From positions 1,543 to 65,542 of the forward strand of contig JBEKDL010000006.1 of the NCBI GenBank assembly GCA_050014355.1: a DNA stretch of 64,000 bases, written 5' to 3'. Position 1 is the stretch's first letter; each line of letters begins with the position of its first letter. The translations under genes were made by a program, and so were the position numbers. This document shows, piece by piece, positions 9,161 to 29,002 of this stretch. This stretch comes from Dehalococcoidales bacterium. GTDB lineage: Bacteria > Chloroflexota > Dehalococcoidia > Dehalococcoidales > RBG-16-60-22. The notes below the pieces were generated by a model. The model did not search any database and was not told where the DNA came from. It saw only the letters and a program-made list of their open reading frames with translations.

Positions 9161-9283
9161 CTTGCACCTCCCGCAAGGGAGGGTTCGTAGTGTTGGTCAT
9201 TTGACCCTCGGGAGGGGAGACAAAACCTCCCCTCTCGCAGTCGAGTGACGAACACTCGGAATATTTCTGAAAGGGGGATAACT

Positions 9284-9478: not shown

Positions 9479-9479
9479 C

Positions 9480-9725: not shown

Positions 9726-9917
9726 GTGCTCATCTCTCCACTCATGGGGCGTCAGGATAAGTTTTTTGTTAAAAAATCGCAAAAAACACGCTTGACGCCT
9801 CCCAGTGGGGCGATGAACCCCAAATAATCTGAAAGGGGGATAACCGACAGCAAGAGAGGTGGCAAAAGGTATCACAAGGTAACCCGGGAAATATTTTATG
9901 AAAGGAGAAACCAAACT

Positions 9918-11665: not shown

Positions 11666-11666
11666 T

Positions 11667-12062: not shown

Positions 12063-12089
12063 AGCTATGGCGATGAATAAGAGCTCCTG

Positions 12090-12866: not shown

Positions 12867-12894
12867 TTTCCCTATCGTTTATCATAGATGAAAA

Positions 12895-12929
12895 GGAGCC
12901 AGGACATAGAGCCTGGCCCCTTTTCTTTT
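12895..12929 (+). terminator. rho-independent terminator
   Basis: GCCAGG-acatagag-CCTGGC stem extended by GG/CC, followed by TTTTCTTTT. Confidence 0.55.
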
Positions 12930-13405
12930 GAATGGCTGTCTTTAGTGGAAGCCAACTTAGCTCCGACCTAAATGCAGCAGCAAAGAGGGTTGCAGTCTCT
13001 CCACGGACCATCTCCATATAACCTTCCGCGGCCACACTCACACTATCCACAAAGGAGATGTCCATGGACTGCCCATTGCCCAATTCTCTAATCTCATTTT
13101 CCAATACACTTTGTATCCCTGGTATAGTTCCATTGTGGACATCGTTTAGTGTTAGTCTGTGGATAGCCAGCCCGAGCATTGAATGATAAAGCTAGGCCAG
13201 CACACATGGCGATGCGGGAAAGGAGACGAAGATACTTTCCTTTAGCGTTATCCACGAGCTTTCCTCTACTTTTATAAAATCCCAGGTGGTAAGAGTTCAT
13301 CGTATCCAGCCACAAGAGGGGGGACCCCCTTATTCCCTTTACTATTAGATGACAATTGAGCCTCCATGTCCTTCTATGTCCTTTGATTTTCATCCTCGTT
13401 AACAC
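12930..13405 (-). pseudogene. possible decayed tyrosine-recombinase fragment (two overlapping frames)
   Basis: Strong RBS GGGAGGTG before MKIKGH... The two frames join to read ...KYLRLLSRIAMCAGLA / GLAIHRLTLNDVHNGTI, resembling the xxTGLRxSELxxLxxxDV box. No HxxR or Tyr region follows. Confidence 0.25.
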
Positions 13406-13625
13406 CTCCCTTTTCCCTATTGGGATGCGTATAACGCCAATTAAACGCTTAGTATTTCAGCCTGATTTCCTCCCCTAACTTCTCCTCTGAAACATCGCCC
13501 TGGGTCATCAGCAACCAGAGCCTCTTCAGCGATTCTTGGTCGATTATCACACTAGTGCTGGTGAAAGTGGTGCCGCAACTTCCTCAAGGAGGTGTCCGAT
13601 GCTTCCCCAGGAATCTAATTTACGT

Positions 13626-13800
13626 CCTCGGGATACTTCCGGGGATTATTCCCCGAGGAAACGTTGAAGCTGAGGTCGGGGACACTTCGGGGAAATCGTT
13701 GAAGCTAAAGCGGGGAACAGTCGGGGAAAGCCAGGGATGCTTCGGGGAAACTGTTGAAGCTAAAGCGGGTAGTTTTCGAGGAAAGCCTATAGATGTCGTC
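13626..13800. repeat. iteron-like repeat field
   Basis: About 10 copies of a CGGGGAA-like core. Three 24-26-nt units GGAAAnnGTTGAAGCTrArGyGGG at about 13657, 13691 and 13746. Palindrome CGGGGA-ttat-TCCCCG at 13640-13655. Confidence 0.6.
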
Positions 13801-13926
13801 GTATTTATTTGGGGAATCATGGTTGACAGTTATGGAAACATTGTTGTGTAGAACAGCGTGCAATTCCCAAAACACTTATGAAAATATAGGAAATATACTA
13901 AACTTCGCTTAAAGATATATTGCACC

Positions 13927-14121
13927 TCAAACCGTGAGGTTGGTATCTGCCCTCTTTTGCTCCCTCTGAATCTTCTCCAGTATGGCCTCTTCCAGCCACT
14001 TTCCCATTGTCATCCTCTTAATAACGGCAGCTACCCGGGCTTGGTGGAGAATATCAGGATCAACCCTAACACTGGTGTTCGGTTTCATTCCAGTCCTAGG
14101 TCTACCTGTACGCTTTTTCAT
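13927..14121 (-). CDS. ribbon-helix-helix (CopG/Arc-type) DNA-binding protein
   Basis: 64 aa. Basic N-terminus KKRTGRPR, then TSVRVDPDILHQARVAAVIKRMTMGKWLEEAILEKI (beta-strand plus two helices). Confidence 0.65.
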   Translation of the reverse strand: MKKRTGRPRTGMKPNTSVRVDPDILHQARVAAVIKRMTMGKWLEEAILEKIQREQKRADTNLTV

Positions 14122-14227
14122 GAGTTTATTGTAATGTCTGTAATACTAAATGTCAAATTAGGGCTATCCTGGCTGAAATATCTGATGTGGCCTCAGACGT
14201 CTTCGGTGACTGCCCATAGCTGCAAAT

Positions 14228-14436: not shown

Positions 14437-17400
14437 TTATTTTATATCCATCGTCAAACGCACAACAGCCGAACGCATGTTGATTTTACGCTGGTCTACC
14501 AACTCGGCAAGGCTGTGGAATCGGCGTTCAATATAGGATTCTCCTGAGGGTTCAAGAAAGATGGCATTTACTTGCTTCCCTAATTCCCATGCTTCCGCCA
14601 GCATCTCAACCCCATTTTCTCTCTCTAATGATGAACTAGCAAGGAACAGGGGAATTTCGTCCCCATCACTCACTAACTTCCACCGGAAAATGCCTTGTGT
14701 TCGTATAACTTGAGATCCGTTTGGATGTAAGAACGCTCCATGTATGTCATCCCATTGGTATTCAAGTCCCCTGAGATAATGACTTAATCGTTCAAACTGT
14801 TTAGCCTGCCTCTTCTTATGCAATAGAATATCATCCGCATCTTCACCTTCATCGTGTTTTTCATTGATATCCTTATCGGTCGAATCCGTGGATGTTACAT
14901 CTTCACCGTGAGGTGAGATGGTCTTCCCATTCGAACCTTGACCTGGAGGTTCATTTGCACTAGCGTCCTCAATGCTAGATGTCAAATCGTCCAAATCGAG
15001 GTGCTGGCGCCCGTATGCTAGGATCCATACGTCACTCCGAGCTACACAGTCTCTTATGGCTCGCTTCGACTCTTCGGTTCTAAATGATCGAGCAAGTTCT
15101 CTGACCAGTTTGTCAAATACCCCAGCAATATCGCCTGCAACATATAGAATATGATCGTACCAGGCCACAACCTCCTCTCTTTCGAGGCTAACCGGACTAT
15201 TATTCAGATACTTCTGAACGCGCAAGGAAGAAGCTGGATGCAGTTTCGTCGCTGCAAGCTTTTGCCCTGTCTTGCGATCGGCCACGTAGTCATCCGCCTT
15301 ATCGTTATCAGGAATACGAAGACCTGCAAGCAGTGTTCCAAGTGCTTTAAGCCACAATTGGTCAGATGACACAGCCTCTCCATCCAATTCAACTTTCGAA
15401 ATTCTAAGTTGCAGATGATTCTCCAGCATTAAGGGTACTTTCTCACCAAGTGAAGTCAATAAATTAGCTTCCACCATTGAAAAATCGCAAACTGTGCCCC
15501 TGATTCCCGAGAAAAGACCTTCGCCGATGGCACGGTCGCGGCACCCCCAAAGAACCTCGTTTTTGTTGATGATGCGGTTATCAAGATTGAGCCATCGACT
15601 TGACTTATTCCATACTTCGCTTGGGTACCTCGCCAGTAAATCACGTAAAGCTCGTCGATCACGTTCCGAGAGGTCGGAATTTGACGGTAAAACTTCTACC
15701 CAGTTCAAGACATCGTTTAAACCAGGCTCAACACCAACTTCCAGTCGTTCCCATAAGGCTATATCGGCTATGTCGTGGTGCAGAACGGCAACACCCGGTA
15801 GGCTTCCAGGATTGTTGCGGAAAATGGCATCAATATGCTCCCAGGTATCTTCCGCTCTCGCTAATTTCTTTGAACTGAAGGCGTCCTTAATATTACCGAT
15901 CTGTTCAATCGGCAATCGGGCCACTACCCGGTCAATCGCTTGATATAGATCACGGAGTGGTCCAATAGGTGGGTTCATAGCCTGCGAAAGATCCTCTAAT
16001 CTTTTTAGAAGTGGTTGGATGTCTGCTGGGTCAGAGCGGACACCGAAGGCGTCTAGACCTACTCGACACCACTCCTGATCCCACGATGCTTTTACGAACG
16101 GCTCAATACCTTCCAATGCACTAGTCTCAGTTGTCCGGCGGTAAAGTTCCGTTGGAAGTTGCGGATGATTAAAGTCATCGGGAATACACTCAACGGTGCG
16201 GAGCCGATGAAGCCAAGATGCCCTTGCTCCACCGGTGGTCACTTCTCGTTCGTGGTCACCCCATGTCTCAAATATGCATATCTTTGTTCGCAAATCCCAA
16301 GTTTTTGCCCATGACTGCAAAATAGCCCTAGAAAGACGCACCCAGATATCTTTATCCGTTGAGCCCTTTTCGGTCCAATAGAGCCAGAATTCCTTAGCGA
16401 AATCCCAATCGAAGATAGCATAATGTCTTGGATTATTATAATAGAAAGATGGCTGCTCACCTCCTCTAGCGCTACAGAGTTCTGTGACATTGTATCGAGA
16501 ATAAAGAAAATGCTCTGATTTTTCAGGAACTGGAAAGGCTAGGATGCCGCCGCGGTTATAAGACCTCGCCCACTTTCGCCAAACATCTTTTTCCTTTGGT
16601 TCCAAACCAGCTTCGTATTCTTCGGTAAGAACATGTGTCTTAATCCATTCCGGTGGTAACAATGATTCGATGTCGATGTCCCCCGGTACTAGACACTTAT
16701 CGTTTGTCCGCCAGGACCCATCTTGGCATAAGAATTTTATTTCTCCACCAGCGATTATTACTGGTAAATCTAATTCGGCCGCGACATGAAGAATCCGAAT
16801 CGCTTTATCCTTGTTAGAATCAACATCATTAAATATGGTTGACGCCGCAAGATTCAGGATATCTCCTATTTCTTTGGGCTGGTTCAATCCAGTTTTATCG
16901 TAACCATTTTTGACGCGAGTTAAGTCTGACTTCTCAATTCGCATCCCTGCAGCCTCGGTTAAGTGGTCCAGGTCAAGTTCAGTACTCTCAACAATTTGGC
17001 TTATGATTCGCGACCAGTTTGAGTCTAACACTTTAACCATGCTGCAAAGAAACTGCCATTGGCTATCCAGGCATCTTTCAGGAACTGACGGCAATGTAAC
17101 TATATCTTTAGCCCTGCCGAGGATGTTGCTGCCTTCCACAGGTATCAAAGCGGCTCGACGCCAGAACTGCCATATTCCTGTCATTGTTTCAACAGTTCGC
17201 TCTGCTAAACTCCATAATGGCAGGAGACTTTCTATCTTGTTTGGTCGAGGGGGCGGTTCGCATCTTTCATCCTGAAGCTTAGTAAATGCATCTTCCGCTT
17301 TGAAGATTTCGACCAATCCCCACTTTGAAAGATTCTCAATATGTTGTTGACGAACATGAGGTGCCAAAGCATTCGTCCAATCGGGAGTGAAATAGTCACA

Positions 17401-18609
17401 AGCGGTTTCCCACCCCCACACATTAATCACTTGGCGAGGTAGGGCAATCGTGCCATCCTTGCAGCCAAGCTCACTATTCGCATTCAATAGAATATCTTTT
17501 TCTTTTATGACAGTCGCAAAAGCTTGAGAAACCTGATTGCATGCTGATTGTTCTATATTAAAAGAGTAATCAGTACCTTTTGGTGGCATGAGGCTGTAGG
17601 CCTCTGCTCTGTCCGTCAAATTGAGATCTGTTCTACCTAACCAGTCCAGTAGACTTGATCCGAGTAGACGTCCAATTCTTCCCAGAAGCCAACGGTTTAC
17701 AGGTGAACTGGCCAACTCCTTTATACCACGTCGAGCAGGATCTTGAATGAACGGAGCTTGAACGCACACTGGAAGGTCGAGTTTGACGCCAGTTGGAAGT
17801 ACCACATGTAGTCGTCCTCTATCTCCTTCGGGCACATGAGCTACTACGATAACACGGCACGGAGGAAAATCTACATCACTCTCGCCACGCTCTTCCTGTA
17901 TTTCTTCGATGCAATCAGGAGGGAAATCCTCATCTTTAGAATCAATGACAAGAACTTTATCTGCAAGCCCCGTGAGCCTCACAAATTTGGAGGCAGTGCA
18001 AGGGCCAGGTTCCTCCGCTGTCATAGCAAATTTTTTATTCTCCAGATTGAAGCCCTTGATATTGTCAAAGAAAAGAAGTGGCAGGGGAGATTTCCGCCAC
18101 CGTTCAAACTCATCTTTTAAAAGTTGTTCTTTTTGCTGAGCATCCAGTCTCACTTTGATTATCGTATGTTCGGATGGTTCAGTTCCTGAAATCCATTCCG
18201 GTTCAGTAAAACGGCTCTTATTAAAGCGACAAGTAATTGTCGGCGTCGTAAGTTCAGCAATTGGTCCAAGCGAAAAAACTGATTTGAAACCAATTCCTCT
18301 AAAACCGATTGTTAATAGCCGTCTCTTGTTTGATCGGCCAAATGAACAAAGGGACTCGAACTCTTCACATGTGAAATCATGACCATTGTGCTCAAACACA
18401 AAGAAACCATCTTTAAGAAAGCCGGATGCCCATGTCGCACCAGCATCATCCGCGTTCTGAATAAGCTCTGAAAGTACATGCCGCGGGCTTTGCACTTGGC
18501 GAAACAGTTGGTACCAAGGGCCAGCTAAATCAGGATCGCCTTCAAGTTGATCCCAACGGCTTTTTGCCTTAGAGCGTATAGCTTCAAAAAAGTCTGGTTC
18601 GCGGAGCAT
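14437..18609 (-). CDS. giant sacsin/NO VEIN-like GHKL ATPase
   Basis: 1390 aa. N box SELIQNADDAGA, G box GFRGIGFKSVF, and PFIQDPARRGI...NRWLL downstream as in sacsin-type modules. Starts 6 nt after the upstream gene. Confidence 0.8.
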   Translation of the reverse strand: MLREPDFFEAIRSKAKSRWDQLEGDPDLAGPWYQLFRQVQSPRHVLSELIQNADDAGATWASGFLKDGFFVFEHNGHDFTCEEFESLCSFGRSNKRRLLTIGFRGIGFKSVFSLGPIAELTTPTITCRFNKSRFTEPEWISGTEPSEHTIIKVRLDAQQKEQLLKDEFERWRKSPLPLLFFDNIKGFNLENKKFAMTAEEPGPCTASKFVRLTGLADKVLVIDSKDEDFPPDCIEEIQEERGESDVDFPPCRVIVVAHVPEGDRGRLHVVLPTGVKLDLPVCVQAPFIQDPARRGIKELASSPVNRWLLGRIGRLLGSSLLDWLGRTDLNLTDRAEAYSLMPPKGTDYSFNIEQSACNQVSQAFATVIKEKDILLNANSELGCKDGTIALPRQVINVWGWETACDYFTPDWTNALAPHVRQQHIENLSKWGLVEIFKAEDAFTKLQDERCEPPPRPNKIESLLPLWSLAERTVETMTGIWQFWRRAALIPVEGSNILGRAKDIVTLPSVPERCLDSQWQFLCSMVKVLDSNWSRIISQIVESTELDLDHLTEAAGMRIEKSDLTRVKNGYDKTGLNQPKEIGDILNLAASTIFNDVDSNKDKAIRILHVAAELDLPVIIAGGEIKFLCQDGSWRTNDKCLVPGDIDIESLLPPEWIKTHVLTEEYEAGLEPKEKDVWRKWARSYNRGGILAFPVPEKSEHFLYSRYNVTELCSARGGEQPSFYYNNPRHYAIFDWDFAKEFWLYWTEKGSTDKDIWVRLSRAILQSWAKTWDLRTKICIFETWGDHEREVTTGGARASWLHRLRTVECIPDDFNHPQLPTELYRRTTETSALEGIEPFVKASWDQEWCRVGLDAFGVRSDPADIQPLLKRLEDLSQAMNPPIGPLRDLYQAIDRVVARLPIEQIGNIKDAFSSKKLARAEDTWEHIDAIFRNNPGSLPGVAVLHHDIADIALWERLEVGVEPGLNDVLNWVEVLPSNSDLSERDRRALRDLLARYPSEVWNKSSRWLNLDNRIINKNEVLWGCRDRAIGEGLFSGIRGTVCDFSMVEANLLTSLGEKVPLMLENHLQLRISKVELDGEAVSSDQLWLKALGTLLAGLRIPDNDKADDYVADRKTGQKLAATKLHPASSLRVQKYLNNSPVSLEREEVVAWYDHILYVAGDIAGVFDKLVRELARSFRTEESKRAIRDCVARSDVWILAYGRQHLDLDDLTSSIEDASANEPPGQGSNGKTISPHGEDVTSTDSTDKDINEKHDEGEDADDILLHKKRQAKQFERLSHYLRGLEYQWDDIHGAFLHPNGSQVIRTQGIFRWKLVSDGDEIPLFLASSSLERENGVEMLAEAWELGKQVNAIFLEPSGESYIERRFHSLAELVDQRKINMRSAVVRLTMDIK

Positions 18610-18615
18610 TAATCT

Positions 18616-21600
18616 CTATTCCTTTTCGAAATTGAAGTTGGAGAAACCAAGTGTCCGGCAATTCTCCGTCACTGTACGGATCACCTGCTCTGACGCTCCG
18701 TCTGGAATACTAATCTGTATTTCAAGAGTGGTCTCTGCCGATGCACCAGGCAAGCTAACTAAGTGCTGGACAACCTCATCCGCGACTTCGGCAATATCCC
18801 TAGAAAGGCGAGTGGGATCAAGCTGAATGGTTGCGTGAAAGCGCTTGGGTTTTACCATCTCCGCCGGTGTAATTGGCTCAATTAGGGATGGTTGAGCCGG
18901 ATGCATACCCCCTGGCACAACATCTGTGGATGACTTTCCATTTGGTTGCCTACGCTGGTCCTCCTCTATGTGCTTTTGTGCGACTTCGGGCTTAACCAGC
19001 ATGGCTTGACCATCAAGCAATACATTTATGCTACGGCAGACGCTTAAGCCTTTGTAACGCCCCTGGGTTTGATCCCATGACTCGGCAAAGGCGAAGCTAT
19101 CGGGGTTCCATGTCATAAGACGTACGCCATCAGCGATAGCCGCAACAATGACCTGGCTGTCACGAATGCGCGGCAGGTAGAGATACCGGCCAAAATCCTC
19201 TACCAGTTGTTTTATGCTGACATTATCGCCACGCCACAAAGGCACCCTATCCAGTTCCAATCGAAGTCGCGTTGCGCCTATCTGAACCAGGAGCATCTCT
19301 TCGCTCTTGAGCCGTTTGGCTGCTCTGGTTGACAGAGCTTCTTGCCCACGCACTGGCATTTCTGTCCATTCAATAACCCCCTGAGGTTTAGACTGACCCG
19401 GTACAAGCAGCCACTGATAAGTCTCAGGTATTCTTAGTTTTACAGTTTCATCAGCATTCCGGCTTTTAGTCTCGGCCTGCTTAGCTTGAAAGGCATCTAG
19501 GTTCAGCGTTTCACGTTCCTGAATTATGGATGTCCAGGCGAGGTACTGGCGTATGGATTGGTCAAGTTCCTTTAGTCGGTTGCCGTCCGCTGCGAGGAAC
19601 ACAAGCATATTCTTGTAGTTCCTTGGACTATTGCCCCGATTCTCAAGAATACTAGCGGCCTGTGTTCTAGCGGGACTAGCTTGGTCTTTAGAAATATGCG
19701 GATACTCAGGATCAAGAATGACTAAACGTGCCTCCAGTTCATCAGGTATGTCACCGCTGGGAACACATACATGGACTCGAGCGAACTCAGCCCTCGTCCT
19801 AGCTTCGCCACGAAGTCTCCTACGAATCTCATCTAGCACTGCATGATTCGCTAACTGGGCAGCCCGGTCATCGGCAAGCCTTGTAACTGACGGCTGAGTT
19901 GAGTACCAATACTTGTTGCCGTCCACATAGAGGTATGTAGCTTGATCGGTAAGCCGGCGTAGGGCGTCTCCAAAGGTGGGTACACTTTCTCCTGGCTGCA
20001 CACAACCTAGCTTGATTCTTCGCTCATCGATACCACGGTTGGCGCCTCTCAACGTAGGCGCCGATCCAATGTAGACAGTGCGAGCTACCCTCCGGCAGGC
20101 AGAATACCTGCCAAGATTGGGGTTGTCGCGGTCCAAAGTCAGTGGCAGAGATTGCGGTCCGTCAACGTCCTTCTCAATCACAGGCACCCACTGGTCTTCT
20201 AGGTATCGCGTCAATTCAAACTGCACCGCCGGATCATCGATGGGTATGCTAGCCGGCAGGATAAGTAGATTGGTATCATTACGAATCCATAAAGAATGTA
20301 TTACGGCAGCCATCAAGCGCAGGACGCCTCTCGTCCTTTGGAACTTATCTAGTGCAGACCAATCGGTATATAAACGGTCGAAAAGTTCCGGATGTATTGG
20401 ATAAGCGGCTTTTAGCCGGCGTTCGTAGTCCGCCTCTCGGCACTCATAAGGAAATTCCTGACTTTGGGTTGCATATAGGTCGGTAAAAGCACGGGCGACT
20501 GCGTCTCGTTGCACATAAAGACTGTTATCTACTATAGGCTCGAATAGTCTGCGTCGTACGATTTCAAATCCCTCATCCGTACTTGCCGGCCGCCATGAGG
20601 ACTCAACCCTCCCGACAGTATTCTTCAAACGGTCGAGAGCCATCTTACCTCGTTCGCCGCCTATTTCATTGTCAGAAGCCGGGATACTGACTACAAGCAT
20701 AGTGCCTGGAGCTGCCTTAGTTGCCTCGGTCAATGCCTGGGCAAATGTGAATTGAGTATCAAAAGTGCCTGCAGGGAGGTTAGGATCATCGTGGAGTTGT
20801 CTCGCGTAGGCCACCCATTCATCAATCAAAATCAGGCAAGGAGAATATCGCTGGAACAGCTCACGCAACCTATCTCCAGGGTTGGTTGCACTTTGGTCGG
20901 CCTCGGCAATCAATGAATAGCCATCTTTACCGCCAAGCTGCCAAGCTATCTCACCCCACAATGTGCGAGTAATAACGCCGTCGGCCTTACGATGTGGTTG
21001 CCCTGGGGAGATTTTGCTCCCTACCAGAACCACCCGGTGGACATCGTGAACAAGTGCTAATCCTGAGTCCTTGAGTATACCTTCGACTCCAGGCAGTTCG
21101 GATGCAGCTTTGCCGCTGAACAAATGATACAATGCAAGCATAGAATGCGTCTTGCCCCCGCCGAAATTGGTTTGTAGCTCCACCACCGGATCGCCACCGG
21201 TGCCACCAAGACGGCCGAGAGCGCCTGTGAGGAGGTGGATGAGTCCCCCTGTTAGAAAGGTACGACGGTAGAACTCAGTTGGATTGCGGTACTCTTCTGA
21301 ACCGCGATCAAGGTAGACCTGCCAGAGGTCAGCTGCAAACTCTGCTTGTTGGTAGCGTCCAGAGGCAACGTCAGGATGAGGTGTGACGACCTCCCGCCAT
21401 GGCTTTAACCCTCCCACCGGTTGTCCCAACATCGGCTGGACTTTGCGCATCTCTCCGCGGCGTTGCTCATCGAATCGGGTGCGGAGAAGTTCCATCTTTT
21501 GCTTGTCGATTTCATCAGCTTCCTCGGCCGCTACGGCCTGAAGAAGACGACCAATACTATCAAGACATCGGTAGGCATCGTCCGTACTGAATGGGTTTTG

Positions 21601-21897
21601 GTGAGCCCACTTGTTTCGCATGTCCCTTAATTCACTAATGAGCGAGCGTTCTGCCGGCCCGAGTGTTCGTCTGAAGACATCGTTCCACTGGTCCCACATA
21701 ACATGCAACATTGCCTGAACGTCCCAGGTGATTTGGCCACCTTTGCTGGTTGGTTTCTCCTCACTCAAGGATTGCAGTGCGACTCGAGTCCATTGGCCGC
21801 CATGAACGGACTTCATCTCACGTTCGAAGAATGGCTTAAGTCCTGCCTTTAATGTCTCAAGTGCTTTGCCTACTCTTTCGTAATTTGTTATCGCCAT
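18616..21897 (-). CDS. Swt1-like HEPN domain + DUF499 P-loop ATPase
   Basis: 1093 aa. RNKWAH (Rx4H) at 21601-21618. Walker A NFGGGKTHS, Walker B-like LILIDEW. Confidence 0.85.
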   Translation of the reverse strand: MAITNYERVGKALETLKAGLKPFFEREMKSVHGGQWTRVALQSLSEEKPTSKGGQITWDVQAMLHVMWDQWNDVFRRTLGPAERSLISELRDMRNKWAHQNPFSTDDAYRCLDSIGRLLQAVAAEEADEIDKQKMELLRTRFDEQRRGEMRKVQPMLGQPVGGLKPWREVVTPHPDVASGRYQQAEFAADLWQVYLDRGSEEYRNPTEFYRRTFLTGGLIHLLTGALGRLGGTGGDPVVELQTNFGGGKTHSMLALYHLFSGKAASELPGVEGILKDSGLALVHDVHRVVLVGSKISPGQPHRKADGVITRTLWGEIAWQLGGKDGYSLIAEADQSATNPGDRLRELFQRYSPCLILIDEWVAYARQLHDDPNLPAGTFDTQFTFAQALTEATKAAPGTMLVVSIPASDNEIGGERGKMALDRLKNTVGRVESSWRPASTDEGFEIVRRRLFEPIVDNSLYVQRDAVARAFTDLYATQSQEFPYECREADYERRLKAAYPIHPELFDRLYTDWSALDKFQRTRGVLRLMAAVIHSLWIRNDTNLLILPASIPIDDPAVQFELTRYLEDQWVPVIEKDVDGPQSLPLTLDRDNPNLGRYSACRRVARTVYIGSAPTLRGANRGIDERRIKLGCVQPGESVPTFGDALRRLTDQATYLYVDGNKYWYSTQPSVTRLADDRAAQLANHAVLDEIRRRLRGEARTRAEFARVHVCVPSGDIPDELEARLVILDPEYPHISKDQASPARTQAASILENRGNSPRNYKNMLVFLAADGNRLKELDQSIRQYLAWTSIIQERETLNLDAFQAKQAETKSRNADETVKLRIPETYQWLLVPGQSKPQGVIEWTEMPVRGQEALSTRAAKRLKSEEMLLVQIGATRLRLELDRVPLWRGDNVSIKQLVEDFGRYLYLPRIRDSQVIVAAIADGVRLMTWNPDSFAFAESWDQTQGRYKGLSVCRSINVLLDGQAMLVKPEVAQKHIEEDQRRQPNGKSSTDVVPGGMHPAQPSLIEPITPAEMVKPKRFHATIQLDPTRLSRDIAEVADEVVQHLVSLPGASAETTLEIQISIPDGASEQVIRTVTENCRTLGFSNFNFEKE

Positions 21898-21910
21898 CGC
21901 TTATCACCCC

Positions 21911-24679
21911 CTAAGACATTTCCATTCGGCCTTGTTCTGGCAATTTAGAGTCTTGCGCGAGCCGCGTTATTTCAGGCCAGGCTCTGACCAGACCGTTGTA
22001 AGCCATTGCCTCTCTAGACCAACCTTTTTTATCGCATATGGCGAATAAACGGTAAGCCAGTGAACGTGCCTCCTCACTACGACCGCCACCCAAACGCGCT
22101 ACTAGGCGTCCTGCAACTTCCTCTCCGTCAGCCTCCAGAGTCCGGATGAGCTGCTGAGTAGATTCCCATACGGTCAACCGAGCATCCTTGAGGGGGTCCC
22201 ATCCTTCCTCAAGTTCGTCCCTTTTTAGGAGACGCACTTTACCAGCCTTAGCTTGAGCCACACCTGAGTTGACCAGCCCCTGTACTGCAATATCCTTCGC
22301 CTTGGCAAGAGTCTCCGCTTCACCAAACGGGCCTTCTTCCATTCCCCTCTGTTCAAACCAGGCTAGACAAAAGCGCGTATCTCGGTCTAGGTCGCCTTCT
22401 TCCTGAGTCAGATATGCATCCAGCTCCTGGTTTATGATCTGAAGAGCGGAACGTACCGACATGGGGTTACCGTCAGCTTCTAGTACCTTCGAATAGCGGG
22501 AGAATACCGCCATCCCGGGTCCAATAGACGCCTGAGTTAGGTCAACCGGTGCAACACCCCCACTGATGAGTAACTTTAGCTGGCTAGGCATTTCTTTTCT
22601 TAAAGCCGCTATGAATTCCTTCCGTGTCGCAAGTGGTGCATCCTCTGGCCGAGGACGGCAGGCGATGACAATAGAGGACGCCAGTGCATTAGCATTATAG
22701 TCTCGCAAGCCGCCTGACCGTTCTGTTCGCATCGGCCAAGTGGCAGTAATCTGAAATCCTGCTTTCAATAGTCCGTCGAGCATCTTTTCCCATCCAGTTG
22801 ATGAAGCAGTTACGCCATTCCCGTCATCATCTCCAAGCTCTTGTTGCTTGAAAGCGTAGTAGACAGTCAGAGGATACTCCGGGTTAGAGTGTTGTCTCAT
22901 CAGGGTAAAAGCTTTGCCTAGACCGATTTCAAAATGCTCCTCTGCTTTCCTACCATCACCATTGAACCGGAAAGGTGAAGCTATTAATTCCTGCGCCTTG
23001 GGCGTGAGCACAGTCGAAAAAAGTTCGGGATATACATTGGCTAGACTTCTCCTTAGCCAGATATAGAAGAAGTCTGAGAGGTCAGCATATCCGATGTTAT
23101 CATAGTATGGCGGGTCAGATGCAATCAGTGGAGCGTTAGTTTTTTGCTTTGGAAGAGCGATAGAGGCATCGAGTTGATCCACAGTGCCCAATGGCTGTCT
23201 AACAGGAGTCCTCTCCAGGCACTCTGCCACGAGACCTACTGAATCCTGCCAGTTGCCCGTTGACTCGCTGAACGGATTTGATTCCGCAAAGTCCCAGGTC
23301 ATCGGTATAGCCTGACGGGCAAAAGTCTGCTCAATTTTTTCGCCACCTGTATTCCAGATACATATAGTGGAACCACGGTTCGCTAAGCGGTCAACAGTAA
23401 AAGCAAGGTATGTACTGACAGCGTCTGCGTAAGCTAGAGCTCCAGATCCGCCAGACGAAAACCCTTTCGCATCGTTCGTCATACCTGCTCGCACTGCATC
23501 TTCGAACACCCGCTTCCGTGCTTCTGTGACCAGGTCGGAAAACGTGGTTAGAGCGAGAAGCTGACGTTTAGTGAATAGGTCGGCGTGACTTGTCATCCCG
23601 TAGGCTTGCACACGAAACCCTAATGCTTTCTCAGGAAGATTCGTTTTCGGAAATGATCTTGGGATGGCCCCTAAAGCTAATACTTCGTGTTTTTCAATTG
23701 GGGGTATGTACAAACGTTGTGTTCGTCCGTCAACAACAATTGCCATTAGCCTGTAACCCAATCGCGCCTCACGGCCTTGAGCCCTAATTTCTTCAAAGGG
23801 CAAAGACGTGTTACATACCGGGCACCTAGCACCTTGACGATTCACAGTACCTGCGATTCCTGCAGCGCTTCCTGCCTGTACTCGGAATCGTACTCTCTTG
23901 TTATCTCTGTCTGGCTCTAATCCGACAGAGTACCTCCGGCCCTCTTTGCTAGACAAGGTAAGTGAGCGAATAAGAGGTAATTCAAAATTACAGGCCGGAT
24001 TTGAGCACTTTGCTGTACGCGCCCAAAGCCACGCAATCACAGTCTCTCCACTAGGGGCCTTTGGGTAGAATTGTCCGATGCTTTTCTCAGCCTCATTCCT
24101 CATCCACCGTCCGTAGTATCTCACGTCGGCAGCAAGTCCAGCTGCCCCTTTCCATACTGCAGAGTCAGCCGTGCCCTTCCGCAATTCAGGATTAACAGGG
24201 TGCCGTCCATCAAATATGGAAGGTATCTCAATTAATGCCTTGGTAATAAGTACAGCTACGGGGTTTAAATCCGAAGCAGAAACAGACAGCCCCAAACGTT
24301 GGCCCTCCAGTGGGATAGAACCACCCCCACAGAACGGGTCTAAAACTGACGGTACAACGCCTTTGGTGGCCCGGCGTATCTCCCTCCTTGCGGTCTCAAG
24401 TACTGTCTCGTTCGTGGTATTCTCCCACTCAACGAGTCGCTCGATAATGTTGAAAAGTCGTTCGCGCTCCTTAGAAGCCTTGTCCTCCGGCAGATCGTTA
24501 CCCGGGTCATCAATTAATGAAGCGAAAAGTACAGCCCGACACGCTGCCAGCGGCCGTCGTGCCCACCAAATATGTAAAGTTGAGGGATGGCCATGCCTGA
24601 TCGATTTCTCTCGCGCTGAAGCGGCGTTGATTGCCTCAAGAGGCAAGGCTACCTCAATCAGCTTTTTACGGTAGGTCAT
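21911..24679 (-). CDS. DUF1156-type DNA methyltransferase (N6A/N4C class)
   Basis: 922 aa. LPLEAINAASAREKSIRHGHPSTLHIWWARRP, DPFCGGGS (SAM pocket), DPPYYD (catalytic), CSNPAC...CPVC zinc ribbon. Confidence 0.9.
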   Translation of the reverse strand: MTYRKKLIEVALPLEAINAASAREKSIRHGHPSTLHIWWARRPLAACRAVLFASLIDDPGNDLPEDKASKERERLFNIIERLVEWENTTNETVLETARREIRRATKGVVPSVLDPFCGGGSIPLEGQRLGLSVSASDLNPVAVLITKALIEIPSIFDGRHPVNPELRKGTADSAVWKGAAGLAADVRYYGRWMRNEAEKSIGQFYPKAPSGETVIAWLWARTAKCSNPACNFELPLIRSLTLSSKEGRRYSVGLEPDRDNKRVRFRVQAGSAAGIAGTVNRQGARCPVCNTSLPFEEIRAQGREARLGYRLMAIVVDGRTQRLYIPPIEKHEVLALGAIPRSFPKTNLPEKALGFRVQAYGMTSHADLFTKRQLLALTTFSDLVTEARKRVFEDAVRAGMTNDAKGFSSGGSGALAYADAVSTYLAFTVDRLANRGSTICIWNTGGEKIEQTFARQAIPMTWDFAESNPFSESTGNWQDSVGLVAECLERTPVRQPLGTVDQLDASIALPKQKTNAPLIASDPPYYDNIGYADLSDFFYIWLRRSLANVYPELFSTVLTPKAQELIASPFRFNGDGRKAEEHFEIGLGKAFTLMRQHSNPEYPLTVYYAFKQQELGDDDGNGVTASSTGWEKMLDGLLKAGFQITATWPMRTERSGGLRDYNANALASSIVIACRPRPEDAPLATRKEFIAALRKEMPSQLKLLISGGVAPVDLTQASIGPGMAVFSRYSKVLEADGNPMSVRSALQIINQELDAYLTQEEGDLDRDTRFCLAWFEQRGMEEGPFGEAETLAKAKDIAVQGLVNSGVAQAKAGKVRLLKRDELEEGWDPLKDARLTVWESTQQLIRTLEADGEEVAGRLVARLGGGRSEEARSLAYRLFAICDKKGWSREAMAYNGLVRAWPEITRLAQDSKLPEQGRMEMS

Positions 24680-27600
24680 TGTGGTTTTCCCCCTCGTGCA
24701 ATTATTTCACCTAGGTCATAGTTCACACTGGTAACACCAAAGTCAGGTTCTCGTCCGAAGGGATAACGGATATAGACTGGTTCATGGACTGACTTTCCAT
24801 CAACTAGGACAACAGCTAGGATGAATTCCTCGGGTTTGTTGAGACCTGTCAATATCTCATTCTTAGTCACTGTCACTGTCGTTGCTCGATAGTCGCGCCC
24901 TTTAACTTCGATGAAGAGCAATCGGCCACTGTCTCGGAACCCGGATTCAATATCATATCCAACCTTCTCCGCGGATACATCGACAGGTCGACGGTCTAGC
25001 AACCGCTCAATTTCCAGGACCTTACGCATTGCAAGTTGCTCAATGCGCTTAGTTTCCCGAGACTCTTCATCTCCTACACCAACCTTCTGACCGCGCAAAC
25101 GCTGCAATAAGCCTTCTGGCACAACGAGGGCGCCACCGATTATCACTGGGGGCACTGGATAAACATGTCGCTCTAACTCTAACTCATCCAGGCGCTTTTT
25201 AAGCCGAGCCTCTAATTCGTCAGCACGCTGGCGAGCTTTGCCTGAGTTAATTTTGGCATTGACCTTACCAGCTAACTCCTGCATTTTTAATTCATTGGCC
25301 CGGTAGTCCCAATAGTTAATCTCCTTAGTAAGACGGTCCTTCACTGCCGCTACGGTGTGGTCAACGACTTCCTCGCGCCGTCGGCGTACCTCCTCTAGGT
25401 GCCGTGGCACCACGCGCTCGATGGCGTACTGCATAATTTTGGACTCGAAATCTCCTTTGAGCCAAGCATCAGACAGTATGGGCAGTATGGATTCACGCTC
25501 CTCAGGACCTATCGAGCGATAGTCCAAATAGGGAGCATACCCAGCTGCACGAGTGTCGCCATTGCGGTCCACCTCAACGAATTGCATCTGCTGCGATACG
25601 ATCCGTTTTCGCCCATCAGGAAGCGTTCTGGCATCCTGCAATGAGTGCTCTAGGTAAAATAGTAAACGCGGATTGTCCGAAATATCAGTGGGGTCAACCA
25701 GAATAGCCCCCTCTTTCAGCAAATTGCGATACTTTTCCAGCATGAGATCAATTACAACATCCAGTAGCGGGTGTCCCGGACAGACAAGCTCTGCCAAGGG
25801 CTTACCTCGAATGGTTATTTGGTCCTTTTCGAAGCATACACGCTCATACTTCGCCATGAGTGGTTCACCGACACCCAACAATCGATCACGGCTTCGCATG
25901 ACTTGCGGTACATGCGTTACTTCATATCTTTTAGGTTCGCGTTCCCTTGCTGTCCCTCCAAAATGAGCAAAGGCTTCAAGAAAGAAAGCTCGTATAAAAT
26001 GCGGCTGAAGTTTTCGAGCGTCGGCTCTTTCCATATCTTCACGAATTCGCTGCACTTTGGCTGTATCCAGAGAGTCGTGTGCCAAAGCCCGATCTTCAAG
26101 GAGTTGTCGTAAATGGTCTCGGTCGAGCTCAGCGTCTACTACCTTGTTGTGCCTGCTCCTGACCTCCGGCTGGTCCCCGTAGCGGATTGCTTCAAGCAGA
26201 AGCTTACGCAGCTCATCACCCTCGAAAACGCGACCAAGAATGTCGAAGACTCCTCCGCCAAGCGCTTTTCGTTCTTCTTCGAGCTTTGTCAGAAGCCTGT
26301 GATATACCTCGCCTTCGCGTGTCTTGTATGCCACGAGACTCCACATGTGGCATACCTCTTCTTGGCCGATGCGATGAATACGTCCAAACCGCTGCTCAAG
26401 ACGATTTGGGTTCCAAGGCAGGTCGTAGTTGACCATTAGATGTGCCCTCTGGAGATTAATTCCTTCACCAGCGGCATCTGTGGCGACCAGCACAAAGACA
26501 TCTTTATTCTGAAGAAATGCTTCCTGGGTCTTGCGCCTGTCTTCACGACCCATGCTGCCATGAATGGTCACCACCGCCTCATGGCGCCCGACAAGGCCGC
26601 GGATCTTCTCCACTAGGTAATCCACAGTATCTCGGTGTTCACTGAAGATGATTAATTTTCTGATATTGCCACTAACATCAACTATTTCATGATTATTCTG
26701 GAGAAGATTGGAGAGTTGCTCCCATTTTTTATCTTTCCCTGAACGGCGTACAGTTGCTGCAAGTAGTTCAAGGGACTTCAAGGTCTCTATTTCTTTTTCT
26801 AGTTCAGCTACATTACGGGAGGCTGAAGCTTGTTCAACGATTTTATCTTCAAGGGACTCCAGTTCGCCGCTCGGGCGGTCATCCATCTCGTCCAGATCAT
26901 CTTCATCTAGGATGGGAAGGTCTTTGGGATCCTCTATTCGTGTCTGAAGCCCGTGCTTCATTATACGTTCCTCATTAAGGCGTTTTTCGAGTCTTTCACG
27001 TCGGCGTCTCAGCGACTCGTGTATGGCGGCAGGTGATGAAGCCAGACGACGTTGCAATGAGGTGAGGGCGAAGCCAACTCTATTGCCCCGACGGCCTTCA
27101 CCTTCAGCCATGAGACGGTCTACTCGGTTCATTTCCTCTTGGACGTAGGCTGTAACTCGGTTGTAAAGGTCATTCTCTTCATTTGAAAGCTCATAAGTCA
27201 CTGTATAAGCCCAACGTTCCGGGAATAGAGGAGTACCGTCAAACTTCACTAGCTGCTCTTTAACTAATCGACGCATAACATCTGAAGTATCGGCAATGTG
27301 TATGCCGTCGCGGAATTTTCCTTCGAATCTATCACTATCGAGGAGAGCCATAAAAAGCTGGAAGTCTTCCTCCTTACCATTATGAGGCGTGGCAGTAAGT
27401 AACAATAGATGCCTTGTTCGGTCAGGCGCTCCAAGCAGTTGTCCGAGCTTGTAGCGTTTGGTCTCCTTAATGTCGCTGCCAAAAAAGTGTGCTGACATTT
27501 TGTGTGCTTCGTCTACAATCACGAGGTCCCATTCTGTCTGACGGAGCTTCGCTTGAATGCTTTCATTCCGACTCATGTGGTCCAGCCGGCTTATTACCAA

Positions 27601-28200
27601 GTTGGCTTCATTGTAGGGATTGCCACTCTTTGAGTCCTCGATCGTCTGGTTAGAAATTATCTTAAAATCAAGACCGAATCGGCGCCACATTTCGTCTTGC
27701 CATTGGTCAACTAAGTTCCCAGGGCAGCAAATAAGACATCGGCGGACATCACCGCGGATAGCTAATTCCTTTATGAAAAGACCCGCCATAATAGTTTTTC
27801 CAGCTCCAGGGTCATCGGCTAGAAGAAAGCGCAATGGTTGTCTAGGAAGCATCGTTTCATAAACAGCGGTTATCTGATGAGGTAGAGGGTCAACAACAGA
27901 AGTATGCACGGCCAGAACCGGGTCAAAAAGATGTGCTAAGCGAATACGGTACGCTTCCGAAACTAGACGAAAAATGCCACCTTCGACGTCAAAGCTCCAT
28001 ACCCGAGTAGCTTCGATAGTCTCTAAAGATGCTTCGCGGTCGCGAAACATCAGTTGATTGCCAAGGTTTCCAGAAGAGTCTTTGTAAGTTAACTCCACTA
28101 CGTTTGGGCCGTGCCACTGTGCGCTGACTACAGTTACCGGTCCACTAGGCGTAACTCCTTTTACGAGGGTACCTTGCTTCAAGTCTTCTAGTCGAGCCAT
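24676..28200 (-). CDS. SNF2-family helicase with C-terminal DUF3883 (PD-(D/E)XK-like) domain
   Basis: 1174 aa. DDPGAGKT, VIVDEAHK, LLLTATPHNG, FGRIHRIGQ. C-terminal GYDIESGF...LLFIEVKG. ATGA overlap with the methylase gene. Confidence 0.9.
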   Translation of the reverse strand: MARLEDLKQGTLVKGVTPSGPVTVVSAQWHGPNVVELTYKDSSGNLGNQLMFRDREASLETIEATRVWSFDVEGGIFRLVSEAYRIRLAHLFDPVLAVHTSVVDPLPHQITAVYETMLPRQPLRFLLADDPGAGKTIMAGLFIKELAIRGDVRRCLICCPGNLVDQWQDEMWRRFGLDFKIISNQTIEDSKSGNPYNEANLVISRLDHMSRNESIQAKLRQTEWDLVIVDEAHKMSAHFFGSDIKETKRYKLGQLLGAPDRTRHLLLLTATPHNGKEEDFQLFMALLDSDRFEGKFRDGIHIADTSDVMRRLVKEQLVKFDGTPLFPERWAYTVTYELSNEENDLYNRVTAYVQEEMNRVDRLMAEGEGRRGNRVGFALTSLQRRLASSPAAIHESLRRRRERLEKRLNEERIMKHGLQTRIEDPKDLPILDEDDLDEMDDRPSGELESLEDKIVEQASASRNVAELEKEIETLKSLELLAATVRRSGKDKKWEQLSNLLQNNHEIVDVSGNIRKLIIFSEHRDTVDYLVEKIRGLVGRHEAVVTIHGSMGREDRRKTQEAFLQNKDVFVLVATDAAGEGINLQRAHLMVNYDLPWNPNRLEQRFGRIHRIGQEEVCHMWSLVAYKTREGEVYHRLLTKLEEERKALGGGVFDILGRVFEGDELRKLLLEAIRYGDQPEVRSRHNKVVDAELDRDHLRQLLEDRALAHDSLDTAKVQRIREDMERADARKLQPHFIRAFFLEAFAHFGGTAREREPKRYEVTHVPQVMRSRDRLLGVGEPLMAKYERVCFEKDQITIRGKPLAELVCPGHPLLDVVIDLMLEKYRNLLKEGAILVDPTDISDNPRLLFYLEHSLQDARTLPDGRKRIVSQQMQFVEVDRNGDTRAAGYAPYLDYRSIGPEERESILPILSDAWLKGDFESKIMQYAIERVVPRHLEEVRRRREEVVDHTVAAVKDRLTKEINYWDYRANELKMQELAGKVNAKINSGKARQRADELEARLKKRLDELELERHVYPVPPVIIGGALVVPEGLLQRLRGQKVGVGDEESRETKRIEQLAMRKVLEIERLLDRRPVDVSAEKVGYDIESGFRDSGRLLFIEVKGRDYRATTVTVTKNEILTGLNKPEEFILAVVLVDGKSVHEPVYIRYPFGREPDFGVTSVNYDLGEIIARGGKPQ

Positions 28201-28212
28201 TCTGTACCTCCT

Positions 28213-28446
28213 TTAACGCCTATCGACAGCATTATCTACGGGAAATGCCTTCGAAGATGGCCTACCTCTGCGCCCTTTATATCCTCTCGCAAATGAGTGA
28301 AGTGTATCGCTTCGGATGAGCCAAGTGTTATGGATCTTTTTCGCCACTAATCTACTTTCTCTACATAATCTTTTCACCGTTCCGGGATGAACCCCTAGTA
28401 CCTGGGCAGCCTCAACCACACTCAAGTAATCATCTAATATAGGCAT
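28213..28446 (-). CDS. excisionase-family (MerR-type) helix-turn-helix protein
   Basis: 77 aa. LSVVEAAQVLGVHPGTVKRLCRESRLVAKKIHNTWLIRSDTL. Ends 12 nt upstream of the helicase start. Confidence 0.75.
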   Translation of the reverse strand: MPILDDYLSVVEAAQVLGVHPGTVKRLCRESRLVAKKIHNTWLIRSDTLHSFARGYKGRRGRPSSKAFPVDNAVDRR

Positions 28447-28866
28447 TAAATATCCTTCTAGACCAATATTATTCCGATGTCGTTATATTATTCCCCTAGG
28501 CTCTGGGAAAGTCAAGGTTCATCTCTTTGGTTCGGATAAACAAACTATCTGGTTGAAGGTCAATGCCAGACAAATGATAAAGATGGCTGGCAATAAACCT
28601 ACAGCACCGGAATCGGCAGCCTAAGAAAGAAAAGGAGAAAAGAGAACCAGAAAAGAGACCCCCCTACCTCCTCTAAAGACGAATATATATACAGAGGAAG
28701 AGAAAGAGAAACGCTGTGACGTATGTTATAGATTAGCTAACAAATAGCTAACAGACTGGATTACATGGGTTATCACAATTTAGTACTCCACGCTCAGAAA
28801 CGGCTGCTTGCACCAGACAAATTTGTACTTATTTGAGCTTAACAGCATCACATGATACAATGAGAC

Positions 28867-28916
28867 ACAGTTTCGTAAACCGCTTGTCGTAGGTTCGATT
28901 CCTATCGCTGGCTCCA
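28867..28916 (+). repeat. att-like direct repeat copy 1: tRNA 3' segment (positions 27-76, anticodon CGU)
   Basis: ACAGT-TTCGTAA-ACCGC-TTGTC-GTAGG-TTCGATT-CCTAT-CGCTGGC-T-CCA. Identical to 36695-36744. Weaker similarity extends back to about 28848. Confidence 0.7.
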
Positions 28917-29002
28917 GTTCTTGAAGCTAAAATCCACTGAAATGGCGAGAGCGTTTTGGCGGATTTTTTATTTTTGCTAATCTTTTGCTAATCTATGTGA
29001 AT

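Follow-up and report, generated by a model that had tools for sequence, protein, structure and literature searches.

A stretch of 64,000 nucleotides (nt) from a Dehalococcoidales bacterium (contig JBEKDL010000006.1, positions 1,543 to 65,542; the window in what follows) contains five consecutive minus-strand genes which code, in order of transcription, for a small helix-turn-helix (HTH) protein, the three components of the defence system Hma (HmaA, HmaB and HmaC) and a giant protein with a GHKL ATPase head, which we refer to as gene 5. We propose, with a probability of about 0.6, that this operon combines an Hma core with a dedicated gene 5 product that works together with HmaA and with an HTH protein that regulates the whole; the locus is best described as a known system carrying a probable accessory subtype. 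Its components are the following:

28213-28446, minus strand: HTH gene, 77 amino acids (aa), HTH_17 (excisionase/MerR-type) DNA-binding protein
24676-28200, minus strand: hmaA, 1174 aa, SNF2-family helicase with a C-terminal NOV_C (DUF3883) PD-(D/E)XK nuclease
21911-24679, minus strand: hmaB, 922 aa, DUF1156 N6-adenine-type DNA methyltransferase with a target-recognition insert and a Zn-ribbon candidate
18616-21897, minus strand: hmaC, 1093 aa, N-terminal Swt1-type HEPN RNase domain followed by a DUF499 (ORC/Cdc6-like AAA+) ATPase
14437-18609, minus strand: gene 5, 1390 aa, sacsin/Hsp90-like GHKL head and a long body
28487-28515, minus strand: promoter-like site TTGACT-17-AATAAT from a consensus scan, 10 of 12 positions matching, a consensus match only

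The five genes, which we predict to form one transcription unit, are closely spaced: 12 nt separate the HTH gene from hmaA, hmaA and hmaB overlap by 4 nt (ATGA), and the gaps from hmaB to hmaC and from hmaC to gene 5 measure 13 and 6 nt. These spacings and the five open reading frames (ORFs) are present exactly as a first-pass annotation, made from the sequence alone, had described them, and all the motifs that it quoted are found at defined residues. The promoter-like site, the single one of its kind, stands 41 nt upstream of the HTH start, and Shine-Dalgarno-like sequences precede the starts of HmaA, HmaC and gene 5. The hmaABC genes are contiguous on the same strand in the order A-B-C with nothing embedded between them, and gene 5 follows hmaC. 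The same five genes were found in two further loci (L001 and L002), the first of which bears out the expectation that their synteny should recur elsewhere: it retains all five in unchanged order, hmaC and gene 5 being likewise 6 nt apart, and its gene 5 product is 63% identical to that of the window. Homology at the DNA level between the window and L001 sets in at position 28494, which is 48 nt upstream of where the HTH gene starts, and breaks off about 80 nt short of the gene 5 stop codon; because it ends at the edges of the operon, and the flanks outside are unrelated, we conclude that the five genes move as one unit.

Profile searches identify genes 2-4 as an Hma system, equivalent to the Type-1 BREX-related, DUF499-centred system, in its HEPN-fused form. 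HmaA matches the PADLOC model PDLC00659 with 1678.8 bits, residues 1-1172 aligning to model positions 1-1171 of 1176, and the corresponding models for HmaB and HmaC are matched with 1114.5 and 1120.1 bits, the latter over residues 164-1091. The locus thereby shows the arrangement by which PADLOC defines Hma, namely a full-length HmaA adjoined on the same strand by HmaB and HmaC, once each. It likewise shows features of the Type-1 BREX-related (DUF499) class: a C-terminal NOV_C nuclease with an intact motif, a DUF1156 methyltransferase with DPPY and a HEPN-fused DUF499 ATPase. Also counted among the marks of that class are, for the helicase, a TUDOR domain at the N-terminus and an inactive REase and, for the ATPase, an RRM at the C-terminus. 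As for the markers of the Type-2 class, HmaA has no PLD/HKD match in Pfam and no extra small gene (the DUF3780 marker) lies within the operon. In HmaA, Pfam recognizes SNF2-rel_dom, Helicase_C and, at residues 1053-1143, NOV_C, and the diagnostic motifs are DDPGAGKT (residue 129), DEAH (230), TATPHNG (269), GYDIES (1081) and LFIEVKG (1095); the NOV_C signature GYDIES...FIEVKG (D...EVK) is invariant among 11 homologues. HmaB contains DUF1156 (2.5e-28), motif I as DPFCGGGS at residue 114, motif IV as DPPY (DPPYYD) at residue 522, and a four-cysteine Zn-ribbon candidate (C225x4C230...C286x2C289). HmaC combines HEPN_Swt1 (1.8e-38, residues 11-122), with the Rx4H motif RNKWAH at residue 94, and DUF499 (8.7e-26), with NFGGGKTHS at residue 244 providing the Walker A sequence GGGKT. 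All the domain calls of the first-pass annotation were thus upheld by profile hidden Markov models (Pfam, and NCBIfam for TIGR01764 and P_loop_sacsin).

The triad, HEPN fusion included, is already known. A HEPN-DUF499 protein (Ava_2192) accompanied by an SNF2-DUF3883 helicase in restriction-modification (R-M) operons was first noticed in 2013 in a survey of HEPN domains (PMC3710099); the system was named Hma in 2021 by Payne et al., from 1,638 loci in 26 phyla (PMC8565338), and re-described in 2026 as the "Type-1 BREX-related system" from 2446 taxa, with 1370 HEPN-fused cases and a helicase-nuclease fusion in 79% (NAR 2026, PMC12839542). The Hma label and the R-M-like helicase-methylase-ATPase triad, which the first-pass annotation had put forward, are correct by the PADLOC models for HmaA, HmaB and HmaC and by PMC8565338; the HEPN-DUF499 fusion is nothing special but the form found in the majority, 1370 of the 2446 taxa (PMC12839542). 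The annotation's proposal that the methylase marks self and that the NOV_C/DUF3883 and HEPN domains are the effectors had likewise been advanced in PMC12839542 and PMC3710099, and its remark that no mechanistic study existed is outdated: HmaA of Halomonas meridiana alone protects Escherichia coli from T4 in an abortive-infection-like, NOV_C-dependent manner, the NOV_C domain being a Mn2+-dependent nickase of supercoiled DNA (PMC11232893). Overexpression of HmaB left T4 sensitivity unchanged in the same study (PMC11232893). Embedded defence genes are present in 62.7% of Hma systems, and many of them defend on their own (Payne 2024, bioRxiv 10.1101/2024.01.29.577857). A sacsin or GHKL partner is mentioned neither in the Hma papers of 2021, 2024 and 2026 nor in the H. 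meridiana study; keyword searches, and the main texts and part of the supplements of Payne 2021, Payne 2024, Liu 2024, the 2026 BREX paper and Iyer 2008, gave no description of a link between gene 5 and Hma or of the fused and split relation to Tiamat presented below. The "HATPase" candidate of Payne 2024 was considered as a possible gene 5 and set aside, being of a different family (AlbA_2/HATPase_c_4/HTH_24). The association of gene 5 with HmaA and its relation to Tiamat are the apparently undescribed part of this locus.

Gene 5 has a 100% identical match in a hypothetical protein from a Dehalococcoidales metagenome-assembled genome and more than 1,500 homologues, the best 120 of which are mostly 1330-1440 aa long and 31-40% identical to it over the full length. 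A search with the part outside the GHKL head (residues 300-1390) against 1.84 billion cluster representatives recovered 552 clusters, 328 of them at E ≤ 1e-30 and most of them about 1350-1450 aa long. Only the head is recognized by profile searches: NCBIfam P_loop_sacsin (63.5 bits, cutoff 50) and Pfam SACS both pick it up, HATPase_c_3 is detected in 20 of 26 family members, and the motifs ELIQNADDAGA and GFRGIGFKS begin at residues 48 and 102. An alignment of these 26 homologues displays conservation from end to end, with the Bergerat-fold residues E48, N52, D54/55, G76, D78 and G102xRGxG107 (N-box and G2-box) invariant, and the G1 box has an invariant His74 (FEHxGxDF) where MORC3 has Asp. 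Against the Protein Data Bank (PDB) the gene 5 profile retrieves MORC3 (E 4.7e-4, over the GHKL head only) and, weakly, sacsin and MutL. AlphaFold models were built on sub-alignments of the two halves (residues 1-720 and 700-1390). The first half, with a pLDDT score (the predicted value of the local distance difference test) of 84, has full-length Hsp90/TRAP1 (E 4e-9) and MLH1 as its top PDB folds, the matches to the N-terminal and middle domains (NTD+MD) of Hsp90/TRAP1 and to MLH1 spanning E 4e-9 to 4e-7, based on which we interpret residues 1-720 as a GHKL head followed by a middle/transducer domain. The second half also scores 84, except for a disordered acidic linker at about residues 1210-1265. 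Foldseek found no significant structural neighbour in the PDB for this C-terminal half, its matches to PvuII, RecU and Hjc being weak (E about 0.2), and no conserved acidic/lysine triad is visible in it. A small domain in which Gly and Trp are invariant, and which has no triad that looks catalytic, makes up the last ~120 residues; that it might be a degenerate NOV_C domain was rejected (hhalign probability 0.2%), and Pfam and profile scans gave no NOV_C match anywhere in gene 5. The models and alignments thus depict a protein with a GHKL head and middle domain, a conserved body of ~900 aa, an acidic linker and a C-terminal domain of ~120 aa, with no detectable nuclease.

We then examined the gene neighbourhoods of gene 5 relatives. 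A scan of one genome per species gave 419 of them, and the best-scoring 80 were examined with 10-kb flanks by tblastn with the window proteins, genes being called from the tblastn matches and the longest ORF. Gene 5 resides in an hma locus in 76 of these 80 species genomes and directly after hmaA in 69, and the gene orders are distributed thus:

hmaA-gene5-hmaB-hmaC: 45 of 80 loci
hmaA-gene5: 19 of 80 loci, 12 of them cut by contig ends and 7 with 10 kb downstream without hmaB or hmaC
hmaA-gene5-hmaB: 5 of 80 loci
hmaA-hmaB-hmaC-gene5, the window order, or a shortened version of it: 5 of 80 loci
gene5-hmaA: 2 of 80 loci
divergent orientation: 1 of 80 loci
no hma gene: 3 of 80 loci

The relatives range over at least nine bacterial phyla and methanogenic archaea, with Chloroflexota, Planctomycetota, Pseudomonadota, Acidobacteriota, Verrucomicrobiota, Bacillota, Actinomycetota, Cyanobacteria and Methanobacteriota among the hosts. 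The junction between hmaA and gene 5 is no longer than 20 nt in 63 of the 69 loci and an exact 4-nt overlap in 42, whereas that between gene 5 and hmaB exceeds 600 nt in 22 of 50; from this difference we infer that extra cargo enters after gene 5 and not between hmaA and gene 5. Both gene orders are also seen in three independently gene-called, Pfam-annotated contigs, one of which has the window order; in it hmaC and gene 5 share 4 nt, and further genes are embedded behind hmaA. Across phyla, in the 80 species genomes and these three contigs alike, the linkage of the GHKL gene to the triad is accordingly real. When its co-occurrence is tabulated, as the first-pass annotation had suggested, the tie to Hma stands, while the usual place of the gene proves to be directly after hmaA and not at the end of the operon. 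In a locus with the window order (L167:2052-3855) three genes, coding for a HATPase_c protein of 289 aa, a protein with DUF4325 and a PIN protein, lie between hmaA and hmaB, a trio that is a candidate embedded system alongside gene 5.

The reverse sample consisted of 80 metagenomic loci anchored on the NOV_C region of HmaA, 63 of which were informative. Gene 5 directly follows hmaA in 11 of these and has the window order in one (about 19% together); hmaB directly follows hmaA in 13, and other cargo occupies that place in 39. Gene 5 is nearly always found with Hma, and Hma is often found without gene 5. The seven pairs of hmaA and gene 5 that have no hmaB or hmaC in the 10 kb downstream (L013, L018, L024, L032, L040, L046 and L066, at about 6400-14200 in each) may, judging from their gene content, constitute a minimal two-gene system; if such a methylase-less pair is a system of its own, discrimination in it cannot rest on methylation. 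The pair is followed by a TonB receptor gene in L032 and by a Replic_Relax gene in L013, and in L024 a pPIWI_RE module precedes it and an Eco57I-like methylase follows it.

The components of the operon change at different rates. Distance matrices over 41-56 loci correlate at r = 0.96 for HmaA and HmaC, at r = 0.76 for HmaA and HmaB, and at r = 0.53-0.62 (Mantel p = 0.001) for HmaA and gene 5. Between the window and L001, HmaA is 89% and HmaC 87% identical, gene 5 63% along its whole length, and HmaB (L001:3905-6706) 55% overall with 26-48% in residues 150-500, the region of the target-recognition insert. This central insert looks as if it had been swapped between the two loci, which would give them different methylation motifs. 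The fast-changing parts are the specificity insert of HmaB and gene 5, and the divergence of gene 5 would suit a component that contacts the invader while being equally compatible with a loosely attached passenger.

Among defence models, only those of PADLOC for TmtA, the protein of the Tiamat system, match gene 5 (PDLC03968, 4e-53), and the best of them does so over residues 40-344 only, the window protein aligning by its head and some 250 further residues; for the homologue P0006 the alignment takes in model positions 73-1029 of the 1486 in a TmtA model. The relation is seen in P0053, a protein of 1682 aa that follows gene 5 colinearly over residues 5-1207 (34% identity) and then continues into a NOV_C-containing region, the C-terminal region matching the C-terminal parts of the TmtA models; its gene stands alone, with no hma neighbours. 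A second NOV_C-fused relative (L050:8082-17825), from one of the three hma-less loci, has HerA upstream and a UvrD helicase and a PD-(D/E)XK (PDDEXK_1) protein downstream. The third, P0233 (L165:62-6708), is followed by a NERD/UvrD-like helicase, and its contig begins 61 nt upstream, so that its upstream neighbour is not on it. Two of the three NOV_C-fused relatives examined (P0053 and that of L050) thus lie outside hma loci, P0233 not being judgeable on its upstream side. Conversely, P0120 (L166:3198-12308), which has no NOV_C, is encoded beside an SNF2 helicase, also without NOV_C, and an Mrr_N protein. A rule recurs in which a sacsin-like GHKL protein is combined with a helicase and a restriction-fold nuclease, the nuclease being fused either to the GHKL protein or to the adjoining helicase, and because it recurs in both fused and separate forms HmaA and gene 5 can be read as a "split Tiamat". 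An assignment of gene 5 to the Tiamat system itself was rejected, as it has no NOV_C, is covered by the TmtA model over residues 40-344 only and does not stand alone; by sequence comparison we classify it as a homologue of the TmtA core without NOV_C and not as a Tiamat system.

The HTH protein matches Pfam HTH_17 (5.2e-10) and TIGR01764 (31.4 bits against a cutoff of 28.8) and is 66-67% identical to its counterpart in L001; a phmmer search with it returned the match in the sister locus and one weak match only. An HTH_17 gene stands directly before hmaA in the window, the sister locus, L005 and L030 only, so that two of the 80 genome loci outside the lineage (L005 and L030) have it; the first-pass annotation's view of it as a conserved fifth component does not hold, and a role as a core component was rejected since the upstream gene varies among loci. 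In about 15 proteobacterial loci a BrxR-like protein of ~290 aa with a WYL domain is encoded directly upstream of hmaA. As checked in one of them (L023:5053-5937), it has the WYL domain (1.5e-7) and the conserved N-terminus WGVERRLEFIEFRLFWEG, and equivalents are present in, for example, L022, L026, L027, L039 and L075; this protein is probably a regulator of the BrxR/CapW type occupying the place of the HTH_17 gene. A few loci have small ribbon-helix-helix or BrnA-like proteins upstream of hmaA, as judged by eye, and the rest have nothing recognizable there. We accordingly regard the HTH protein as a probable transcriptional regulator, one of several that appear interchangeable in this operon. 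The TIGR01764 domain also raised the possibility of an excisionase, which was rejected because no integrase occurs within about 15 kb; nor is there a tRNA gene or a flanking repeat pair.

According to the literature on this family, HmaB would mark the DNA of the host as self by methylating adenines within a motif that its variable insert reads, and HmaC, as an ORC/Cdc6-like AAA+ protein with winged-helix and RRM-like domains and variable modules for binding DNA or RNA, would recognize unmodified incoming DNA and assemble the complex. HmaA would then translocate by means of its SNF2 motor and nick or cut through NOV_C, with the HEPN RNase on HmaC serving as a possible back-up, suicide-type effector. 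The anatomy and comparative genomics of gene 5 suggest a dimerizing GHKL ATPase of the sacsin/Hsp90/MutL type that would act as a partner of HmaA and not alone: the Hma-linked versions would have lost NOV_C, or never had it, and HmaA next door, usually translationally coupled, would supply it. In such a role gene 5 might be an ATP-driven clamp or matchmaker that senses the invader or DNA and licenses or restrains the helicase-nuclease of HmaA, comparable to the licensing of MutH and UvrD by MutL; its fast divergence would be in line with a sensor. The HTH protein would most likely autoregulate the operon, like the C-proteins and BrxR in other modification-based systems. A stricter version, to which we lend somewhat less than even odds, holds that gene 5 is an obligate fourth Hma subunit ("HmaD") that makes up a split Tiamat with HmaA, its GHKL ATPase being the sensor or clamp that switches on the NOV_C nickase.

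Several points weigh against a dedicated partnership of gene 5 with HmaA. The coupling of the two is proposed from gene order only, and the 80 loci behind it are the top-scoring relatives and not a random sample, so that distant members could behave differently. The position of gene 5 is variable, since it follows hmaC in the window and in about 8 other loci, and the slot after hmaA hosts many unrelated independent defences (Payne 2024), gene 5 being found in 12 of the 63 HmaA-anchored loci. Its co-evolution with HmaA is much weaker than that of HmaC (r = 0.96). On the side of the protein itself, the G1 box appears non-canonical and ATP hydrolysis is not assured, and the C-terminal half, with its weak matches to restriction-endonuclease folds, may contain a cryptic nuclease. 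Some of these points would suit an autonomous, Tiamat-like single-gene defence lodged in the Hma embedding hotspot and independent of HmaA, HmaB and HmaC. Such a reading would accommodate the 62.7% of Hma systems with embedded genes (Septu, PARIS, GmrSD and others), many of them self-sufficient, the other cargo after hmaA in 39 of 63 HmaA-anchored loci, the occurrence of gene 5 after either hmaA or hmaC and its absence from most Hma loci, as well as its faster divergence than that of its neighbours (63% against 87-89% between the window and L001), its loose co-evolution with HmaA and its matches to TmtA as the only defence models. However, autonomous embedded systems are mostly found outside Hma (0.7% of Septu are embedded), whereas gene 5 is in an hma locus in 76 of 80 genomes; it also lacks the NOV_C nuclease of its free-standing relatives, a 4-nt overlap usually joins its start to the hmaA stop, and additional cargo enters behind it and not ahead of it. 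On balance we consider this explanation unlikely.

A further possibility is that gene 5 is a safety device, a chaperone-like GHKL antitoxin that keeps the HmaA helicase-nickase inactive until infection and replaces methylation where hmaB is absent. The Hsp90-like fold would be in keeping with this, translational coupling would fix the stoichiometry, and the seven hmaA-gene 5 pairs without hmaB or hmaC within 10 kb downstream would be loci of the expected kind; there is, moreover, something to restrain, in that HmaA alone acts in an abortive-infection-like manner and its nuclease shows no sequence specificity when it nicks supercoiled plasmid in vitro (PMC11232893). We nonetheless judge it improbable: gene 5 is absent from about 80% of related Hma loci, HmaA alone was expressed in E. 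coli with no lethality reported (PMC11232893), and the occurrence of the same body with a NOV_C fusion in free-standing proteins agrees with the role of an activator or partner as readily as with that of an inhibitor. We give very little credence to the view that the operon is a classical R-M system or a member of the DISARM or BREX groups, with gene 5 and the HTH gene as unrelated neighbours and the HTH protein as the excisionase of an element. Models of DrmD, BrxH and DpdE do match the helicase core, the HTH protein does match the excisionase-family TIGR01764, and a direct repeat resembling a tRNA 3' end lies 421 nt from the HTH gene. Yet the identification of HmaA as DrmD of DISARM or DpdE of Dpd was rejected on scores of 365 against a cutoff of 610 and 182 against a cutoff of 500, BrxH, RapA and the NCBIfam "antiphage" DUF1156/DUF499/PLD trio of models also match far under their curated cutoffs, and the Hma models match end to end. 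The ORF list and Pfam scan show no PglZ, BrxA/B/L, DrmA/B/C or Dpd genes in the operon, no integrase, tRNA gene or second att copy flanks it, and both the HTH gene and gene 5 are kept with the triad in the different genomic context of L001. The reading that we favour remains that of an Hma core with a gene 5 dedicated to HmaA.

The direct repeat just mentioned is the following:

28867-28936, 36695-36764 and 38567-38636: direct repeat ending ...GGTTCGATTCCTATCGCTGGCTCCA, three copies of 50-70 nt with a tRNA T-arm/acceptor-like end

The copy at 28867-28936 is the one nearest the operon; between copies 2 and 3 the shared sequence continues for another 79 nt upstream (36610-36688 and 38488-38566). 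The repeats bracket a glycosyltransferase/sugar-nucleotide cluster and a gene for an Ig-like protein, and such segments plausibly resemble tandem islets at a degraded or unusual tRNA-like att site. Of the first-pass annotation's island array next to a tRNA-type att repeat, the three-copy repeat itself is thus genuine, but a tRNA gene, an integrase and a left-hand copy are missing: ARAGORN, and Rfam at gathering thresholds or at E ≤ 1, detected no tRNA or tmRNA gene in the window, no integrase or transposase was found next to the operon, and no direct or inverted repeats were found bracketing it. The island-array reading is plausible for the segments between the repeats and not demonstrated for the Hma operon. 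The sugar-nucleotide/glycosyltransferase cluster forms the right-hand neighbourhood of the operon, and to its left lie a pair of genes for Ku and an ATP-dependent DNA ligase (9918-11665, plus strand, with a 1-nt overlap), a bacterial non-homologous end-joining pair, a gene for a small AAA protein and, where the GC content drops, a truncated polyprenyl-synthetase-like ORF. This last ORF (12781-13179, minus strand), situated at the GC break to the left of the operon, aligns to the polyprenyl synthetase profile at positions 104-156 only; it is probably what remains of a gene and possibly marks the insertion boundary. Just downstream of gene 5, an intergenic low-GC stretch contains two tandem 54-nt units that are 81% identical (13679-13787). 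Elsewhere, an ORF of 1156 aa (55470-58940, minus strand) lies in a high-GC segment (about 60%), and the swings of GC content across the window, from 43% to 61%, suggest several foreign segments.

Hma, or BREX-related, systems are among the most widespread R-M-like defences (26 phyla and thousands of taxa). For the question of how self is told from invader in them and how the HmaA nuclease is controlled, gene 5 would offer a concrete regulatory component, translationally coupled to HmaA and found in about one in five of the sampled related loci. The relation of fused and split forms would join two catalogued systems that have been treated as unrelated, Hma and Tiamat, and a minimal system of hmaA and gene 5 is suggested that annotation tools would miss or mislabel. 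Pipelines may report an "Hma" accompanied by an orphan or partial "Tiamat", and such loci would be better treated as one unit. Should gene 5 be an "HmaD" in the strict sense, it would provide a first mechanistic handle on Tiamat, point to a methylase-independent two-gene defence made of hmaA and gene 5, and connect an immune module of prokaryotes with the NO VEIN and sacsin GHKL architectures of eukaryotes.

Comparison with known systems helps to place the operon. With Type 3 BREX (BrxC, BrxXI/PglXI and BrxHII) it shares a homologous ATPase, N6-methyltransferase and SNF2 helicase (PMC12839542), the BrxHII model matching HmaA at 9e-89. It differs in being without PglZ or any other BREX-specific gene, in having a DUF499 and not a DUF6079 ATPase, in the DUF1156 N-terminus of its methylase and in the C-terminal nuclease, with an active-type motif, of its helicase. 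The general precedent is provided by the prokaryotic MORC and paraMORC proteins of R-M operons, described by Iyer, Abhiman & Aravind in 2008 (PMC2292703): in these, too, a GHKL ATPase is combined with a DNA methylase, a nuclease of restriction fold and superfamily 2 helicases, SWI2/SNF2 among them, and some paraMORCs carry the nuclease in cis (PMC2292703). Unlike them, gene 5 appears to belong to a sacsin/Hsp90-like branch, with Hsp90 folds ranking above MutL and MORC, and is three to four times longer; neither gene 5 nor its partnership with DUF499 and DUF1156 proteins is listed in PMC2292703. With the TmtA-like proteins of Tiamat, gene 5 has in common the sacsin-type GHKL head and much of the long body. 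However, the TmtA-type proteins end in a NOV_C PD-(D/E)XK domain where gene 5 ends in the acidic linker and the ~120-aa domain, and the examined P0053 stands alone while gene 5 is encoded beside a helicase that itself bears NOV_C. The closest known relative of the operon is Hma, to all three proteins of which the products of genes 2-4 correspond end to end, on the same strand and in the same order; the system as described has three genes, to which the operon of the window adds the GHKL gene after hmaC.

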